From: an uncultured Thermodesulfobacteriota bacterium
Lineage (GTDB): Bacteria > Desulfobacterota > WTBG01 > CAIYCZ01
Direction of reading: 5' to 3'
Length of the DNA stretch: 64,000 nucleotides
Assembly: GCA_964594075.1 (NCBI GenBank)
Contig: CAZQKW010000017.1
Coordinates: 1,290 to 65,289, forward strand
The position numbers were made by a program, and so were the translations under genes. Below are positions 22,261 through 42,790 of the stretch, in pieces; the first letter of the stretch is position 1, and each line of letters starts with the position of its first letter. A model generated the notes under the pieces. The model was not told where the DNA came from. It did no database searches and saw only the letters and a program-made list of their open reading frames with translations.

Positions 22261-23353
22261 ATGTCGGCAAGTCAATGGGAAGAAAAAGTGAACTCGTTAG
22301 AACAGCGCATGGAGACACTGCGAGGTTATCTTTGAGGTTGACCAAAAAAAGGCGCGTATAGCGGAATTAGAAAAGGAGATTGCCCGCCCTGATTTCTGGA
22401 CTGACCAAAAAAATGCCAAGAAGGTTGCCAAGGAACGAAAAACAATAGAAAATGTGTTAGCGCTCTGGAATAAACTTGAGCGGGAAATGGAAGACTGCCA
22501 TGTCCTGCTTGAACTGGCGCGGGATGGTGCGGATCAAGAGGTAGAGCGCGAGCTCGAACAGAGCACCCAGCGAATAGAACAGGAGGTTGCAGAACTTGAA
22601 TTTAAAAGAATGCTCAGCGGCGAGAACGATTTTAATAACGCGATCGTCAGCATTCACGCCGGTGCAGGGGGAACCGAAGCTCAGGATTGGGCTAACATGC
22701 TTCTACGGATGTATCTGCGCTGGGCAGAAAAACGAGGTTTCAAAGCAGATATTTTTGATATTCTTCAGGGAGAAGAGGCAGGCATTAAAAGCGCCACGTT
22801 CACGGTTAACGGTGATTATGCCTTCGGATATCTTAAAGCCGAGGTAGGCATTCACCGTTTAGTGCGAATCTCGCCATTTGACGCTAATGCGCGACGGCAT
22901 ACCTCGTTTGCATCGGTGTATGTTTATCCTGACATTGAGGACGATGTGGTTATTGAGATTGACGACAAGGACCTGCGCATTGACACGTTTCGCTCCAGTG
23001 GCGCCGGCGGCCAGCATGTCAACAAGACCGAATCAGCAGTGCGCATAACACACCTCCCGAGCGGCATTGTCGTGCAATGTCAAAATGAGCGTTCCCAGCA
23101 TATGAACCGGGCTATGGCGATGAAGCTTTTAAAAGCGCGCCTCTATGAAAAGGAGATGGAAGAACGGGAAAAGGAACTGGATAAGATTCATGCTTCGAAA
23201 AAGAAAATTGCCTGGGGAAGTCAGATTCGGTCCTATATTCTGCAGCCGTATCAGATGGTCAAGGACCATCGTACCGGGAAAGAAGTTGGAAATGTTGAGG
23301 CAGTTCTAAACGGGGATATTGACGAGTTTATCGAAGCGTATCTGTTAAGCTAA
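22261..23353 (+). CDS. prfB: Peptide chain release factor 2 with programmed +1 frameshift at CTT TGA (22330-22335)
   Basis: ORF1 MSASQWEEK...LRGYL ends in CTT TGA. The +1 frame continues EVDQKKARIAELE..PDFW and contains SPF and GGQ. Internal SD-like GAGGT lies just before the shift site. Confidence 0.95.
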
Positions 23354-31918: not shown

Positions 31919-32956
31919 TTATAAAATTAACCACGGCCGCGGCAGAAATATCTTTTCGTACGTGCTGAAGGCATATCGGTCAGTCATCCCGGCAATAAAA
32001 TCGCATACCTGGGTTTGCAACTCCACAGCGCATAGGGTCTTGCCTGCCTCTTGGAAAAGATCATCCGGGTGTTCCAGAAAATAATAATACAGTTCCTCGA
32101 TTATTTTTGAGGCCTTATTAAAATCTTCAAGCAATGAGGGAAGATAATAGACCCGATCATTGAGAAATTCCCGCAAACTTCGCGCCGCAGCAATTATCGT
32201 AGTGCTGGCTGCTATTTTTTCAAGGTTGCACTCCCGCGTAGTTTTGATTATGTCCCGCACCATGGTATCAATTCGCTGGGAACTCGTCTTGCCCAGAATT
32301 TCTATTACATGACCTGCGCCCTGGGTTACTTCGTCATGAGTTAGAAGACCGGCGCGCAACGCATCATCGAGGTCGTGGTTAATATAGGCGACCGTGTCAG
32401 CAATACGCACGATTTGTCCCTCAAGCGTTACGGGCAACTGGTCGGGGTCGTCAGGCAGAATTTCACCCTCCCGTTTTGAATGTTTTACAACGCCGTCGCG
32501 CACTTCAACGGTAAGATTGAGCCGCTCAATTTCATCAATCACCCTGAGGCTTTGTTCCGGGTGGCGAAACCCGCCCGGCACTATTTTGTTCAGCACTGCT
32601 TCGCCCGCATGGCCAAAGGGGGTGTGGCCCAGATCATGCGCCAGGCTGATCGCTTCGGTTAGATCTTCATTCAGGCGGAGCGATTTGGCAATGGTTCTGG
32701 CAATCTGGGAAACTTCAAGGGTGTGCGTGAGCCGTGTGCGGTAATGGTCGCCGGTGGGCGTAAGAAAGACCTGCGTTTTGTGTTTGAGCCGGCGAAACGC
32801 TTTTGAATGAATAATGCGGTCGCGATCATGTTGGTAGGCGGGTCGCAGATCACACTCTTCTTCCGCAGCAAGCCTGCCCTTGCTGTTACAGCTTAATGTC
32901 GCCTGCGGCGCAAGATGTTTTCTCTCAATTTCTTCCAACTGTTCCCTGATATTCAT
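31919..32956 (-). CDS. dgt: Deoxyguanosinetriphosphate triphosphohydrolase
   Basis: QHDRDRIIHSKAFRRLKHKTQVF, RTRLTHTLEVSQ, HDLGHTPFGHAGE, DFIAGMTDRYA. ATG at 32956. Confidence 0.95.
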   Translation of the reverse strand: MNIREQLEEIERKHLAPQATLSCNSKGRLAAEEECDLRPAYQHDRDRIIHSKAFRRLKHKTQVFLTPTGDHYRTRLTHTLEVSQIARTIAKSLRLNEDLTEAISLAHDLGHTPFGHAGEAVLNKIVPGGFRHPEQSLRVIDEIERLNLTVEVRDGVVKHSKREGEILPDDPDQLPVTLEGQIVRIADTVAYINHDLDDALRAGLLTHDEVTQGAGHVIEILGKTSSQRIDTMVRDIIKTTRECNLEKIAASTTIIAAARSLREFLNDRVYYLPSLLEDFNKASKIIEELYYYFLEHPDDLFQEAGKTLCAVELQTQVCDFIAGMTDRYAFSTYEKIFLPRPWLIL

Positions 32957-33192
32957 GGCAATATCAAAAATGATGTTCAACTCGGTTACAAACCTTTTAC
33001 GTTCGTAGCAAAATATATGATAAAAATCAATCCCCAACCGTACAGGACTTTCATTGCGTTTTTGTCGAAATTCCGCGAGACCGCATAAAGAACTGAAAAC
33101 CGGCGCTGTGCACACTGCAGAATCAGAACCCCGTGCGCTGTTTCATCAGCACCAATGTAATATTTTGGGGAATGTCCTGAGACAGCAATGAA

Positions 33193-33221
33193 TTGACAGT
33201 TGACAATTTATCTGATAAAAA
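33193..33221 (+). promoter_or_regulatory. Sigma70 promoter for the small basic peptide gene
   Basis: TTGACA (33193-33198), 17 bp, TAAAAT (33216-33221). Confidence 0.7.
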
Positions 33222-33275
33222 TTAAGCAACGTGCATGAAACATAATAGAAGAAAACCAAAGAAAGGAGGGTGAAG

Positions 33276-33362
33276 ATGGCAGCAACAAAAGCAAAGGCGA
33301 AGAAACCGTCTGCAAAAAAACCGGCAAAAGCAGCTAAAAAGGGATGTGGCTGTAAGAAGTAA
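33276..33362 (+). CDS. 28-aa Lys/Ala-rich peptide with C-terminal CGC (MAATKAKAKKPSAKKPAKAAKKGCGCKK)
   Basis: Manual translation. AAAGGAGG RBS at 33262-33269, with its own promoter and terminator. Below the ORF-track cutoff. Confidence 0.75.
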   Translation: MAATKAKAKKPSAKKPAKAAKKGCGCKK

Positions 33363-33371
33363 CATTCCGCG

Positions 33372-33410
33372 CCCCCCACGCGATAAATTAGACGTGGGGG
33401 GTTTCTTATT
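33372..33410 (+). terminator. Intrinsic terminator
   Basis: CCCCCCACG (33372-33380) / CGTGGGGGG (33393-33401), then TTTCTTATT. Confidence 0.8.
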
Positions 33411-33502
33411 AGGCTATCATTAATTGTCTGGAGAAAGCTCTATTTTGAACAATATTGTGCTATAATATATTACAAAGTAAATATTCTTTGGTATCACTGT
33501 AT

Positions 33503-34528
33503 ATGAAAATATTTTGTACCTGTTTATTGTTATTATGTCTTGCCGGTTGCATGGTTAATCCGGTAACATTGAAGAGTGAATTCAATGTTGTCAGCGAAGA
33601 ACGAGAATTAAATATCGGCAGGCAGGCGCACCCGCAAATTATCAAACAGTTTGGCTATTACCAGAATGAGAAGCTGCAACGTTACGTCAATGAAGTCGGA
33701 CAGAGACTTGTGGCGGTTTCGCGGCGTCGGGATTTAACGTATCATTTTACCGTGCTCGATACCCCCATAGAAAATGCGTTCGCAGTTCCCGGCGGCTATA
33801 TTTACATTACCCGTGGCCTTCTGGCGTTTCTGAACAGCGAGGCAGAGCTGGCCGGGGTTCTGGGCCATGAGATTGGTCATATTGTCGGGCGAGACAGCGC
33901 CAATCAAATGTCGCAAGCTATGCTTGCACAGATTGCAGCATTAGCGGGAGCAGCAGCAACGCCATCAAGCGGGGACGCTGCTGCGGCAACCGGCATGTTG
34001 CTCAATTCAATTATGCTGGGCTATGGGCGGGAAAAGGAGTATCTTGCTGATGTTCAAGGGATAGAATATATGTATAAAGCAGGATATGACCCCAGACAGA
34101 TGGCCACATTCCAAAAAAACCTTGCTCAAATAACCGAAGGCCCGGTAGGTTATCAGGTTTACAACAGTACCCATCCTAATATGCTTGACCGCATGGAGCG
34201 CGCAACCGCCAAAGCTAAGGTGATGATGGCTATGAATGACGCTATGGCGCAGATAAATATCGAAACCGCCAGCCACACAACGGCCGCGCACAATAATATC
34301 CAAGTATTGTCAGATAAATATAAAGAGTATTTGGATGGGCTTGCGTATGGGCCGAAAGAGAACCTGCGGCATATCAAGATCTATACAGTTCAGGAGGGCG
34401 ATACACTGCCGCTGATAGCAAAAAAGACCATGGGCAGCGAACATTATGCGAAAGAGCTTGCTGAACTTAACGGCCTACCGCTTTCTATGCAGCTTGTCCC
34501 GGGCACGAAAATAAAAACCATACTTTAA
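33503..34528 (+). CDS. M48 family metallopeptidase lipoprotein with C-terminal LysM-like domain
   Basis: Lipobox LAGC, NAFAVPGGYIY, HEIGH, E..AD, STHP, YTVQEGDTL..IA. Confidence 0.88.
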   Translation: MKIFCTCLLLLCLAGCMVNPVTLKSEFNVVSEERELNIGRQAHPQIIKQFGYYQNEKLQRYVNEVGQRLVAVSRRRDLTYHFTVLDTPIENAFAVPGGYIYITRGLLAFLNSEAELAGVLGHEIGHIVGRDSANQMSQAMLAQIAALAGAAATPSSGDAAAATGMLLNSIMLGYGREKEYLADVQGIEYMYKAGYDPRQMATFQKNLAQITEGPVGYQVYNSTHPNMLDRMERATAKAKVMMAMNDAMAQINIETASHTTAAHNNIQVLSDKYKEYLDGLAYGPKENLRHIKIYTVQEGDTLPLIAKKTMGSEHYAKELAELNGLPLSMQLVPGTKIKTIL

Positions 34529-34533
34529 GCAGA

Positions 34534-35565
34534 TTAGGATGCTGCACACCAACTTCGCCCAGCAGCCTTAACGAAGAGTTCCAGCCGTCTCATCATTTCG
34601 AAAAATTTATCTGGTTTTAAGGATTGGATTCCATCGCTCTGCGCATGATCCGGATGCGGATGAACCTCTATCATGAGACCGTCAGCTCCCGCGGCAATCG
34701 CCGCAAATGACATGGGTGCAACCAGTTTCCAGTGGCCGGTCCCATGGCTCGGGTCGACGATTACCGGCAAATGGGTGCGTTCTTTCAAAAGGGGCACTGC
34801 GCTCAGGTCAAGGGTATTGCGGGTTGCCGTTTCAAACGTGCGTATGCCGCGCTCGCATAAAATAACCTGCATATTCCCCTCTGACAAAATGTATTCCGCC
34901 GACATCAAGAACTCTTCTATCGTTGTCATCATGCCGCGTTTTAAGAGCACCGGTTTCGTGCATTTGCCGAGCGCTTTAAGCAGCGCAAAGTTCTGAACAT
35001 TGCGTGCGCCGACCTGAAGTATGTCTGCATGCCGTGAGATCAGATCAATGTCTCCCGGATTCATAATTTCGGTGACTACCGGCAGGCCGGTTACCTGGCG
35101 CGCCTTGTCTAATAAGACTAAACCTTCTTCCTCCAACCCCTGAAAGCTATAGGGTGATGTGCGCGGCTTAAACGCACCTCCCCGCAAGACTGTTGCCCCC
35201 GCTTCCTTCACCGCAGCGGCAGTTTCAATTATTTGCTGTTCGCTTTCAATTGAGCATGGGCCGGCAATGACCACTATTTCATCACCACCAATGAGCACTT
35301 TATCATTAATTCTGATGATAGACTTATCCTGTTTTACTTCGCGACTGGCAAGTTTATATGGCTGCAGGATGGGAACAACTTTTTCAACACCCGGCAAGGT
35401 TTCCAGAGCCAGCAATTTATCTTTGCCGCGCTCGCTGCCTACCGCGCCTATAACGGTTCTTTCTGTGCCGTAAATTATGTGCGGCTGATAGCCCAATTCT
35501 TTGATAGTATCAAGAACTTCTTGAAGTTCTTCGGGGGATGTTTTAGCCTTCATAACGATTATCAT
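34534..35565 (-). CDS. aroF: DAHP synthase type I-beta with N-terminal regulatory domain
   Basis: [53 protein letters not shown]. Confidence 0.93.
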
Positions 35566-40810: not shown

Positions 40811-42538
40811 TTAAACGCCCCAAAATGAATCAATTTCTTCAGAGGTAAAATCCCACACCACATTATGCGGCGGACACGGCTCGTCAAAGAACTCCGGTAA
40901 GCGGTCATGTGTGTTGCTGAAACCGGCCGCAATATTAAATTCATGTTCGGTTCGCAGTATTTTTCTGCCCAGCGTGCGACCGTCATCTGCCGTCATTTCT
41001 AAATCATATTTGGCGTTAATCATATCAAAGACCAGAGAAAACACTTCCGGCTTATCCAACAGGGGGAACATAACGAAAATACAAAGGCCGGTACTGTCGA
41101 TTAACGCAGTGCCGATCTGCAATTTTCGTGAAAGTTCAACTTCGCCTTCTTTCCGCAACGGATCAACAAAACCCCCGATTCGTAATATGTTTACCGGGAT
41201 ACAGTAACCAGCAGTATGGTCGGCGCCCATCGTTGACGTCGCATAGGTTATCCCCATACCTTTTACCGGCCGTGGATCATAAGCGGGCAGGGCCTGATTT
41301 TTTACCACCGGGACTCTGGTCACACCGTATGCTCTGCCGACCGCTGCGGCACCCGAGCCAATGATTCTCCCCAGAGGAGTGCCCTCGCTGATTTCTTTAA
41401 GCAGGCGGAGCGCACCGGCACCGTCGCCAAAAGGTATGATTCCGGCTTCCATCGCAACACCAATTGCCACAGCGGTTTCTATTGTGTCAATGCCAATATC
41501 ATCGAGAAGGTGGTCTATTTCAGCAATAATGTCCAGATCTTCTATGCAGCAGTTGGCGCCAAAGCCCCAAATTGTTTCATATTCAAAGCCGGATGTCACG
41601 TAATTGCCATTTTTGTCGTTATATACCTGTGAACATTGTATGACACATCCTGCATGGCAGGCATGATGCGGTTTGCCGTTTCGATTTAAAATAGTTTCAC
41701 GCATGGTTTCGCCGCTTATTTTCTCAGCCGCTGCAAATCTGCCGTAATGAAAATTTCGGGTTGGAAGTCCTCCTGATTCGTTCAATATGTTTACCAGCAC
41801 ATCGGTCCCATACGTCTTCAGTGCCTGGCCACTTACCGGATGATCGACCAACGCCTTTGCAAACGCACGGGCAGCGATCTTAAATTTTTCCTGGTCAAAG
41901 ATTTTTACTCCGGGTCCATCAGTGGGATCTATGGTGATATATTTGACTTTTTTGGAACCCATAACGGCGCCCAATCCGCCGCGGCCATGGCTGCGAATAT
42001 AACCATCAGGATCCTTTACCGAAATATTAGCAGCCACCAGGCGTTTTTCCCCAGCGGGGCCGATGGACAGCATACCGGTTTTATCTCCATGTTTTTTTAT
42101 GAGCGTTTTCATGACGGCATAATTTCCCTTGCCGACTAATGTTTTTTCCTCCTGAATTGCGACGCCATCTTTAGTAACATGAAGACCATACCATGCATCT
42201 TTTTCCGGCAGTCCCTCAATAATAAGCGCTTTAATGCCTAACCGGGCAAGACACTGGGCAGCCGTGCCCCCCGCGTTGCTCTCTTTTATGGTGCCGGTCA
42301 GCGGACTTTTAGCACCCGCAGAAAGCCGTCCAGAATTTGGACATGTGGTTCCGCCAAGCATACCGGGAGCAAAGACCAGCTTATTCTGAGCGCCCAGCGG
42401 ATTGCAGGTCGGATTCACTTCATGGGCAACAATATTAGACGTCAACCCTCTGCCGCCGAGCACGCTCCATTTCTCCGGAACATCCTCAACTGTTGCCGTA
42501 AGCGTCGTCATGTTAACGCGATAAATTTTCTCTGCCAT
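40811..42538 (-). CDS. aor: Aldehyde:ferredoxin oxidoreductase (W-bis-pterin AOR family)
   Basis: KSPLTG.IKESNAGG, GRGGLGAVMGSK, CHAGCVIQC, EYET, D.IGIDTIE, GADHT. Confidence 0.93.
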   Translation of the reverse strand: MAEKIYRVNMTTLTATVEDVPEKWSVLGGRGLTSNIVAHEVNPTCNPLGAQNKLVFAPGMLGGTTCPNSGRLSAGAKSPLTGTIKESNAGGTAAQCLARLGIKALIIEGLPEKDAWYGLHVTKDGVAIQEEKTLVGKGNYAVMKTLIKKHGDKTGMLSIGPAGEKRLVAANISVKDPDGYIRSHGRGGLGAVMGSKKVKYITIDPTDGPGVKIFDQEKFKIAARAFAKALVDHPVSGQALKTYGTDVLVNILNESGGLPTRNFHYGRFAAAEKISGETMRETILNRNGKPHHACHAGCVIQCSQVYNDKNGNYVTSGFEYETIWGFGANCCIEDLDIIAEIDHLLDDIGIDTIETAVAIGVAMEAGIIPFGDGAGALRLLKEISEGTPLGRIIGSGAAAVGRAYGVTRVPVVKNQALPAYDPRPVKGMGITYATSTMGADHTAGYCIPVNILRIGGFVDPLRKEGEVELSRKLQIGTALIDSTGLCIFVMFPLLDKPEVFSLVFDMINAKYDLEMTADDGRTLGRKILRTEHEFNIAAGFSNTHDRLPEFFDEPCPPHNVVWDFTSEEIDSFWGV

Positions 42539-42572
42539 AATTCCTCCCTTTTCAATTTAGTGAAAGTTTCTG

Positions 42573-42679
42573 ATAACTCTCCTTTCCCAAAGGGAGGCCC
42601 TGCTGTTTCCAGCAAAACCCTGTGGCCTGTTACCGTGAGAGCATTAGCATTCTTTTAGGTTCAGAGGCTCGGAGATTAT
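42573..42679 (-). ncRNA. Moco RNA motif riboswitch, P3-less (Tuco-type) variant
   Basis: CUCCGAGC, P2 (CUCUG.ACC..GGU..CAG), GGCC-AC-AGGG, a GAAA-tetraloop stem (UUUUGCUG/CAGCAGGG), then CCUCCC..GGGAAAGGAG. P1 closes AUAAUCUCC/GGAGAGUUAU. Directly upstream of aor. Confidence 0.85.
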
Positions 42680-42790
42680 TAATATTGTAAGTTTAACACA
42701 TTAAATGCATTCATTGCCAGCATTTTATCAAGGGGTCCCGGCCGAGAAAAGATTGTGAAAGAAATTCTCACTGGTTCGTTTTGCAGTTTT

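Follow-up and report, generated by a model that had tools for sequence, protein, structure and literature searches.

Does the interval between a dgt-like gene and an M48 peptidase gene, in the genome of an uncultured Thermodesulfobacteriota bacterium, hold a genuine gene for a peptide of only 28 residues, and if so, what might so small and so basic a product do? The window, meaning the whole 64-kb stretch of DNA analysed here, is an ordinary housekeeping segment with genes for QueC, HisG, TruA, PurB, Lnt, RF2, pentose-phosphate enzymes, AFOR and a sigma-54 activator. An earlier note, made from the letters alone, had described a stand-alone peptide gene in this interval, complete with promoter, ribosome-binding site and terminator, between a dgt-like gene on the minus strand and an M48 gene on the plus strand. 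The sequence and the positions of these elements are as it described them, the elements recur across relatives, and Pfam agrees on both flanking genes. The features of the locus are as follows.

31919..32956, minus strand: dgt-like HD phosphohydrolase (Pfam HD and HD_assoc), the divergent upstream neighbour
33193..33221, plus strand: promoter, with -35 TTGACA at 33193-33198, a 17-nt spacer, TG at 33213-33214 and -10 TAAAAA at 33216-33221
33262..33269, plus strand: Shine-Dalgarno sequence AAAGGAGG, 6 nt upstream of the ATG, read directly
33276..33362, plus strand: peptide coding sequence, 28 amino acids and TAA, MAATKAKAKKPSAKKPAKAAKKGCGCKK (from translation and 13 unique homologous coding sequences)
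33336..33359, plus strand: invariant C-terminal tail KKGCGCKK, with Cys codons at 33345-33347 and 33351-33353
33371..33410, plus strand: intrinsic terminator, an 11-bp G+C hairpin (33371-33402) followed by TTTCTTATT, starting 8 nt past the stop codon
33506..34528, plus strand: M48 and LysM peptidase (Pfam), downstream and in a separate transcription unit

The peptide and its neighbours

The boundaries of all three genes differ from those given by the ORF lister. Its dgt call (31919-33115, minus strand) is over-extended: the homologues are 345 residues long and align from about residue 52 of the 398-residue ORF, so that the true start is probably 32956 and not 33115. The call at 33455-34528 (plus strand) is likewise over-extended, and the start of the M48 gene is ATG 33506, its product opening with a signal of the lipoprotein type (...LLCLAGC). 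An extended -10 belonging to M48 alone, TGCTATAAT, lies 3' of the terminator. For the peptide gene the lister starts at GTG 33270, a codon that abuts the Shine-Dalgarno sequence and is not conserved among relatives, one of which (L001) has a stop codon there; ATG 33276 is therefore taken as the start. Exact look-up of the 30-residue GTG-start version gave no match.

Read from ATG 33276 to the TAA at 33360-33362, MAATKAKAKKPSAKKPAKAAKKGCGCKK has 11 Lys and 8 Ala and is devoid of Asp and Glu, as the earlier note had counted; Pro, Gly and Cys occur twice each, and Met1 is the sole hydrophobic residue. Two AKKP units precede the tail, whose cysteines, C24 and C26, form a single CxC and account for 2 of 28 residues (7%). 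The computed pI is 10.4, the net charge about +11 and the mass of the des-Met form 2699 Da (2.7 kDa). The 28 residues include no hydrophobic segment and no signal peptide, and on composition the product is presumably a disordered cytoplasmic polycation. A scan of the window found no other K/A/P-rich segment or CxC-basic tail in real genes.

Elsewhere in the window, a Mo/W cofactor riboswitch (Rfam RF01055, 69 bits) lies at 42563-42686 on the minus strand and immediately precedes the gene for aldehyde:ferredoxin oxidoreductase (40811-42538, minus strand). The RF2 gene has a classic programmed +1 frameshift site at 22320-22340, ...CGAGGTTAT CTT TGA G..., which reads LRGYL-stop, and the N-terminal part is not in frame with the main ORF at 22454-23353.

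Expression signals and the level of chance

A consensus scan shows that the extended -10 dinucleotide TG (33213-33214) precedes TAAAAA in the arrangement TGnTAAAAA. The perfect -35, 17-nt spacer, extended -10, strong Shine-Dalgarno sequence and tight terminator together predict high constitutive output. The terminator RNA folds at -21.7 kcal/mol (z = -2.7), and 3 of 200 shuffles fold equally well. In a 1-kb scan one promoter-like site was observed, against 2.3 expected from shuffled sequence. The coding stretch is T-poor (9 T in 87 nt) and open in all six frames, which means that the ORF by itself is no proof of a gene. Taken alone, these single-sequence signals do not exceed chance, and it is conservation across relatives that lifts the gene above it. 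A reading as a known sRNA or riboswitch was dropped because an Rfam search of positions 32000-35000, at E up to 1, found no RNA family.

Conservation across relatives

Relatives of the gene were reached by several routes. A search of GTDB species genomes through the M48 neighbour led to L001, an uncultured delta-proteobacterial MAG with an M48 protein 76% identical to that of the window and with MATKSTAKKPVKSAKKPAKSAKKGCGCKK encoded at the same position, divergent from dgt. A protein search with the concatenated peptides of two family members returned four 5'-over-extended entries ending ...AKKGCGCKK, together with a frameshifted form that is considered below. In a metagenome DNA scan for KKGCGCKK followed by a stop codon, 12 of the 25 loci returned encode a K/A/P-rich peptide, and those of the 12 that are of sufficient length all share the synteny dgt/M48/AsmA/DAHP synthase. 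Finally, a walk through dgt homologues reached L034 and L035 (dgt 78% and 80% identical), both of which have the gene with an intact tail.

Since the metagenome scan presupposes the tail, tail conservation was also judged on the loci reached through neighbouring genes. AKKGCGCKK is intact in every in-frame locus of this kind, and it is identical in L001 (via M48) and in L034 and L035 (via dgt), all found independently of the motif. By codon position, its variable columns number 0/0/7 in the neighbour-found loci, all synonymous, and 0/0/8 across alleles. The earlier note had made its proposal depend on homologues with codon-level conservation and on conservation of the CGC; such homologues exist, and both expectations are borne out.

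The signals around the coding sequence are retained as well. The 13 distinct alleles keep the binding site, the ATG, the stop codon and the hairpin, and the promoter is kept wherever upstream sequence is available, with the layout TTGACA-17-TGnTAnnnn common to 12 of 12 such loci. AGGAGG or GGGAGG stands at an equal distance from the ATG in every family locus. A hairpin of -18 to -35 kcal/mol follows the stop codon at the same place in all relatives, its stem sequences differing between subclades, and a clear U-tract is missing after it in some of them (L031, L035). Downstream of the promoter the 5' UTR is 48-63% identical between subclades, reaching 74% in the closest pairs; set against this range of 48-74%, the coding sequences are 72-90% identical between subclades.

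Within the coding sequence, substitution follows the proposed frame. Indels among the 13 unique coding sequences are in frame and lead to peptides of 26-30 residues. The Nei-Gojobori pN/pS of these sequences is 0.14 in this frame, 0.22 in the wobble-sharing antisense frame and above 1.2 in the remaining four. Variable columns are distributed 6/4/23 over the three codon positions (23 of 33 at the third; P = 2e-5 for the position-3 excess), and nine sites, every one of them a synonymous third position, vary among four alleles that encode the same peptide. The AKKP units upstream of the tail are likewise conserved in the family alignment, and KKGCGCKK is the only strictly invariant block. The locus is a monocistronic micro-gene under purifying selection on the plus-strand peptide, and we are highly confident that it is real, selected and protein-coding.

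The low ratio in the antisense frame raises the question of whether the minus strand might be the one that matters, encoding a hydrophobic, F/A/G-rich peptide of the type I toxin kind, with the plus transcript as its antisense RNA. The frame is indeed open (77 residues in the window) and 'membrane-like', but a low pN/pS is what shared wobble positions would give. Moreover, the start codon and the N- and C-terminal parts of the antisense ORF are unconserved between subclades, the scan found no minus-strand promoter-like site, and a Q/H amino-acid change falls where the plus-strand tail is invariant. The conserved block is bounded exactly by the plus-strand ATG and stop codon. The antisense ORF being unconserved, this reading was rejected, and we regard it as very improbable.

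Conserved and variable neighbours

In every family locus long enough to tell, dgt is adjacent to the peptide gene and divergent from it. The downstream side is less constant: a DUF1003 gene or its remnant separates the peptide gene from M48 in L001, L034 and the L004 group. Of the synteny between dgt and M48 that the earlier note had proposed to check, the position beside dgt thus stands, while adjacency to M48 is not strict. The DUF1003 product is a membrane protein with an N-terminal CQCC motif; its gene lies at the following places, the copy of the L004 group being a remnant of 111 residues, and is missing from the window.

L001, 3154-3978: DUF1003 gene
L034, 2937-3704, minus strand: DUF1003 gene
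L004, 6864-7199: DUF1003 remnant

This variability bears on a possible role in attenuation, in which a leader peptide rich in lysine would govern whether transcription passes the terminator and reaches the next gene. Eleven Lys codons in a short ORF, with a terminator hairpin 8 nt beyond it, have the right general appearance. However, what lies downstream is not the same gene in all relatives (M48 in some, DUF1003 or its remnant in others); in the window, M48 has an extended -10 promoter to itself and does not belong to a lysine pathway. There is no evident pairing that could form an alternative antiterminator, and selection acts on the amino-acid sequence, Cys and Gly included. The leader-peptide reading was rejected on these grounds and has, in our judgement, very little chance of being correct.

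The neighbours also weigh on the suggestion of the earlier note that the product might be a modified-peptide precursor acting in trans. The small stand-alone ORF and the conserved C-terminal cysteines would suit the precursor of a RiPP, modified or secreted by enzymes encoded elsewhere. As that note had observed, and as Pfam analysis of the window neighbours agrees, no modifying enzyme is adjacent; more broadly, no modifying enzyme, transporter or metal-homeostasis gene adjoins the peptide gene in the window or is conserved beside the copies of its relatives. The genes seen beside it in about 15 loci are dgt, M48, DUF1003, AsmA and DAHP synthase, with no conserved modifying enzyme, transporter or protease. 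The peptide is devoid of a leader-like hydrophobic or helical segment, and its conservation spans the whole chain and not a core alone. The precursor reading is accordingly disfavoured; it was rejected for its missing enzymes, and we think it hardly credible.

A young gene in a narrow clade

Beyond the closest relatives the gene disappears. It is absent at L041 and L042 (dgt 70% identical), though M48 still adjoins dgt there, and at loci with dgt 69% and 67% identical; the locus with dgt at 74% is too short for a call of presence or absence. An exhaustive HMMER profile search of 1.84 billion representative proteins gave six matches, five of them members of the family itself and the sixth a 1739-residue entry listed with no matched stretch. 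The gene is single-copy and confined to relatives with dgt at least 78% identical, and sister lineages are without it. The host clade is one narrow group of uncultured Desulfobacterota-like sediment bacteria, placed in Desulfobacterota by the names that relatives carry, and the gene is young.

In databases the family exists as 5'-over-extended calls of 40-58 residues (P0001-P0004, P0126) and as unnamed 30-residue entries (P0127, P0129); L035 has a called 30-residue gene, and in L034 the peptide gene is not called at all. Searches of Pfam, NCBIfam, PHROG and PDB sequences with the peptide gave no match, in Pfam and NCBIfam even at E = 1-10. Full-text literature searches for its characteristic strings (e.g., GCGCKK, AKKGCGC, KKPAKTAKK) turned up no paper, and matches for other CxC-KK strings (CRCKK, CKCKK) were irrelevant. 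Judged by its sequence, the peptide belongs to no known family, and the sequence family is undescribed.

So restricted a distribution argues that the peptide is not a core component of the ribosome or the nucleoid, and the absence of the gene from sister lineages that keep M48 beside dgt argues against any core function. This weighs on the idea that the peptide associates with RNA or the ribosome, binding rRNA or mRNA and modulating translation or ribosome stability, with its cysteines as a metal or redox sensor. Most tiny ribosomal proteins are Arg-rich, whereas this peptide is rich in Lys and Ala; its gene lies outside any ribosomal-protein operon and is limited to the narrow clade. Very strong expression signals are nevertheless typical of genes for the translation apparatus, and the composition matches an RNA-binding region of the KPAA type (PMC12818456). 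On balance we consider an RNA- or ribosome-associated role unlikely, though worth keeping in view.

An allele with a frameshifted tail

One lineage departs from the rule of an intact tail. A deletion of 1 nt, leaving GCAGCAAAAAAGGATGT, occurs in four assemblies from four runs, in an A/G run corresponding to positions 33330-33345 of the window:

L006, 10001-10108: frameshift locus
L007, 211-318: frameshift locus
L043, 2625-2774, minus strand: frameshift locus
L044, 2546-2695, minus strand: frameshift locus

This lineage is the second closest to the window, with dgt 95% identical. In the zero frame its allele reads ...AAKK-DVAVKSNIPPPTR in place of GCGCKK, the codons for which now stand in the -1 frame, and the zero-frame stop codon falls within the terminator loop. 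The deletion also generates an in-frame A_AAA_AAG, with GCAGCAAAAAAGGATG as the candidate slippage segment; the terminator hairpin, counted from the sequence, lies about 28 nt downstream of it, too far for a typical frameshift stimulator. A_AAA_AAG is a classic bacterial -1 slippery heptamer, though it seldom causes spontaneous slippage in vivo (PMC9307594). Low-level rescue of the tail by -1 slippage on this heptamer is a possibility; barring such rescue, we read the fixed frameshift in so close a lineage as a sign that at least one population can do without the tail.

This allele is pertinent to a role for the peptide as a thiol buffer, chaperone or scavenger, in which a low-pKa CGC would bind Zn, Ni, Cu(I), Cd or As(III), or react with oxidants or acyl-CoA thioesters, while the lysines would provide solubility, tune the pKa or act as acyl acceptors. 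Lysine beside cysteine is a hallmark of metallothioneins and counts in its favour, as does the fact that the sole strictly invariant block is the one that holds the cysteines, KKGCGCKK. The metal-binding CopY peptide, too, ends in CxC-KK (PMC12648655). However, two cysteines in 28 residues would give a low capacity per peptide, the AKKP units upstream are conserved too, metal-homeostasis genes were not found nearby, and the frameshift lineage survives without an in-frame tail. A primary thiol function, the uses suggested for the lysines included, therefore seems rather unlikely.

A possible clasped polycation

What, then, could the conserved combination of a basic chain and a CxC tail accomplish? 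Predicted high expression, the lack of a targeting signal and the extreme positive charge together point to a binder of a cytoplasmic polyanion. We tentatively favour, as a possibility short of an even chance and by analogy with published systems, an abundant disordered polycation that lies on a polyanion and is clasped in pairs through its CxC by a metal or a disulfide. Histone H1-like tails bind DNA, and the peptide would coat a cellular polyanion in the manner of such tails of the KPAA/AKKP type; the likeliest target would be chromosomal DNA, with RNA, ribosomes or polyphosphate as possible others. The lysine-flanked Cys-x-Cys would supply half of a four-thiolate site, and with one CxC per peptide any such site must be intermolecular. 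Two peptides, charge-neutralised on the polyanion, could be clasped by Zn(II), by another soft metal or by a disulfide formed after oxidant exposure. Once clasped, a binder that is weak and monovalent by itself would become a bivalent staple able to bridge or compact the polymer, and a change of metal or redox state would undo it.

The individual steps have precedents. The KPAA-repeat tail of PhaF binds RNA directly via its lysines (PMC12818456), the C-terminal peptide of CopY, ...CNCIPGQCECKKQ, suffices for dimerisation driven by Zn(II) or Cu(I) (PMC12648655), and half of the four ligands at an intermolecular Zn site come from the CxC in the tails of CD4 and CD8 (PMC12198760). A nucleoid- or ribosome-associated peptide with a CxC metal or redox switch, as the earlier note had imagined it, fits the composition and these published analogues. 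Against the staple, there are only two AKKP units, compared with tens in known H1-like tails, and the one CxC amounts to no more than half of what the CopY motif contains. Furthermore, with 11 lysines around the clasp, two copies would repel each other unless bound to a polyanion.

The polyanion need not be a nucleic acid. The H1-like protein AlgP localises to polyphosphate granules and organises and spaces them (PMC9239181), and the extreme positive charge of the peptide would suit a similar granule polycation in place of a nucleoid protein. The 64-kb window includes no ppk, ppx or granule gene, however, and nothing separates polyphosphate from DNA or RNA as the target; we consider an AlgP-like role quite improbable.

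If the clasp is true, no protein associated with the nucleoid or RNA and equipped with a metal or redox switch would be smaller than this peptide, which would also offer a tractable synthetic-peptide model. A polycation with one lysine-flanked CxC has a chemistry that suggests a minimal switchable cross-linker of nucleic acids. Gene callers routinely miss proteins of fewer than 30 residues, and this 28-mer is a clean case, in which the signals are complete and purifying selection is plain. Because it is narrowly distributed and also occurs naturally with a frameshifted tail, the gene usefully illustrates how selection may still be testing a young gene.

Similar tails on phage-like contigs

A tail of similar design occurs on low-GC phage-like contigs, where unrelated proteins share an ending composed of R-K-K-(K)-S, 8-25 Lys/Arg-rich residues and K-C-x-C-K-K-COOH. 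Six of about 32 called genes in a 20-kb stretch of L056 are tagged in this way, as are three consecutive genes in L010 and two in L030:

L010, 1724-2813: tagged genes
L030, 128-499 and 1772-2131: tagged genes
L056, 3180-3461, 5432-5980, 8392-8673, 10001-10342, 11708-12016 and 12013-13071: tagged genes
L015 and L021: also tagged

Nine homologues of a 123-residue L030 protein, 55-60% identical to it except for one at about 90%, all end ...K-C-[GRSK]-C-K(K); both cysteines and the next lysine are invariant in this family and the middle residue varies. No Pfam or PHROG match was found for the polybasic CxC-KK tail. An AlphaFold model of the carrier family (pLDDT 62.7) has a generic ferredoxin-like core and a disordered tail, and Foldseek of this model against the PDB gave only nonspecific matches with TM below 0.5.

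In IMG/VR, raw counts are 32 for KKCxCKK-stop, against 26 for KKCxxCKK and 66 for KKxCCKK as controls. Among true ORF ends of at least 35 residues they are 16, 3 and 9, respectively, with 9 of the 16 belonging to one TM-peptide family whose tails read ...MWWKMRSKKCxCKK, and KGCGCKK-stop occurs 8 times against 0 and 3 for shuffled controls. Enrichment of CxC-KK over all IMG/VR contigs is modest at best. A hydrophobic phage peptide of 48-53 residues recurs in IMG/VR, with a TM-like segment followed by the tail:

L058, L060, L061, L070, L074, L077, L078, L084 and L086: peptide with ...MWWKMRSKKC[TNS]CKK

The recurrence of the ending suggests that polybasic-CxC-KK is an autonomous C-terminal module, of which the 28-mer would be essentially the module alone. 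It is conceivable, if doubtful, that the 28-mer is the free form of a portable tag which some uncultivated low-GC phages give to many of their proteins and which anchors its carriers to a polyanion and clasps chains via a shared metal-thiolate site, the bacterial gene supplying the bare tag as an abundant cross-linker or competitor. That many phage proteins end alike may point to a tagging motif of wider occurrence that has yet to be described.

Comparison with known systems

The locus lacks features that define several known classes of small protein or regulatory element. Attenuators have a constant, promoterless downstream operon and an antiterminator, type I toxin loci a conserved start, RBS and full-length antisense hydrophobic ORF, and RiPP loci a conserved adjacent modifying enzyme or transporter; none of these is found here, in the last case in the window and about 15 related loci. 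Metallothioneins have a high Cys content with several CxC or CxxC clusters, and the peptide has a single CxC. The small ribosomal proteins of the bTHX, bS22 and bL36 class are conserved phylum-wide, whereas this gene is absent at dgt identities of 67-70%. Like bTHX and bS22, the peptide falls within 25-35 residues, has a high pI and is of a kind often missed by gene callers; unlike them, it is not Arg-rich, it carries a CxC tail, and its gene is limited to the clade with dgt at least 78% identical.

Protamines are very small DNA-condensing polycations, cross-linked by inter-chain disulfides or zinc bridges via few cysteines, and in this they resemble what is proposed for the 28-mer; they are, however, Arg-rich, eukaryotic and germ-line-specific, with no homology to it. 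The likeness to the H1-like tails of AlgP and the C-terminal domain of PhaF lies in the Lys/Ala/Pro composition, the presumed disorder and the short K-P-x-A or A-K-K-P units. Profiles of the H1-like/KPAA family (AlgP, PhaF-CTD, Hc1-type) gave no match in Pfam or NCBIfam at E = 1-10, and in place of the long tandem K/A/P array of such proteins there are two AKKP units in 28 residues. In PhaF and AlgP, moreover, long arrays (22 KPAA repeats in PhaF; PMC12818456) are carried on folded domains, whereas here the chain is a free 28-mer with a Cys pair.

For the tail, the copper repressor CopY offers a likeness, with CxC-KK at the extreme C-terminus, GCGCKK-stop here corresponding to CECKKQ-end there (...ECNCIPGQCECKKQ). 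Without metal, the isolated C-terminal peptide of CopY is disordered; Zn(II) or Cu(I) brings about its dimerisation (PMC12648655). CopY differs in having two CxC pairs per chain (CxCxxxxCxC) and a winged-helix DNA-binding domain, against one CxC in the peptide, and the two are not homologous. The zinc clasp of CD4 or CD8-alpha with Lck likewise places a CxC in an unstructured basic tail, where it contributes two Cys ligands to a four-Cys Zn site formed between molecules (PMC12198760), but it is a eukaryotic hetero-complex with a CxxC partner and a hydrophobic interface, and the analogy holds for the chemistry only. By these comparisons we infer that the peptide is akin to the small basic nucleic-acid-associated peptides and may be something of a hybrid, in which a polycation of the H1 or protamine type is joined to a CxC metal clasp.
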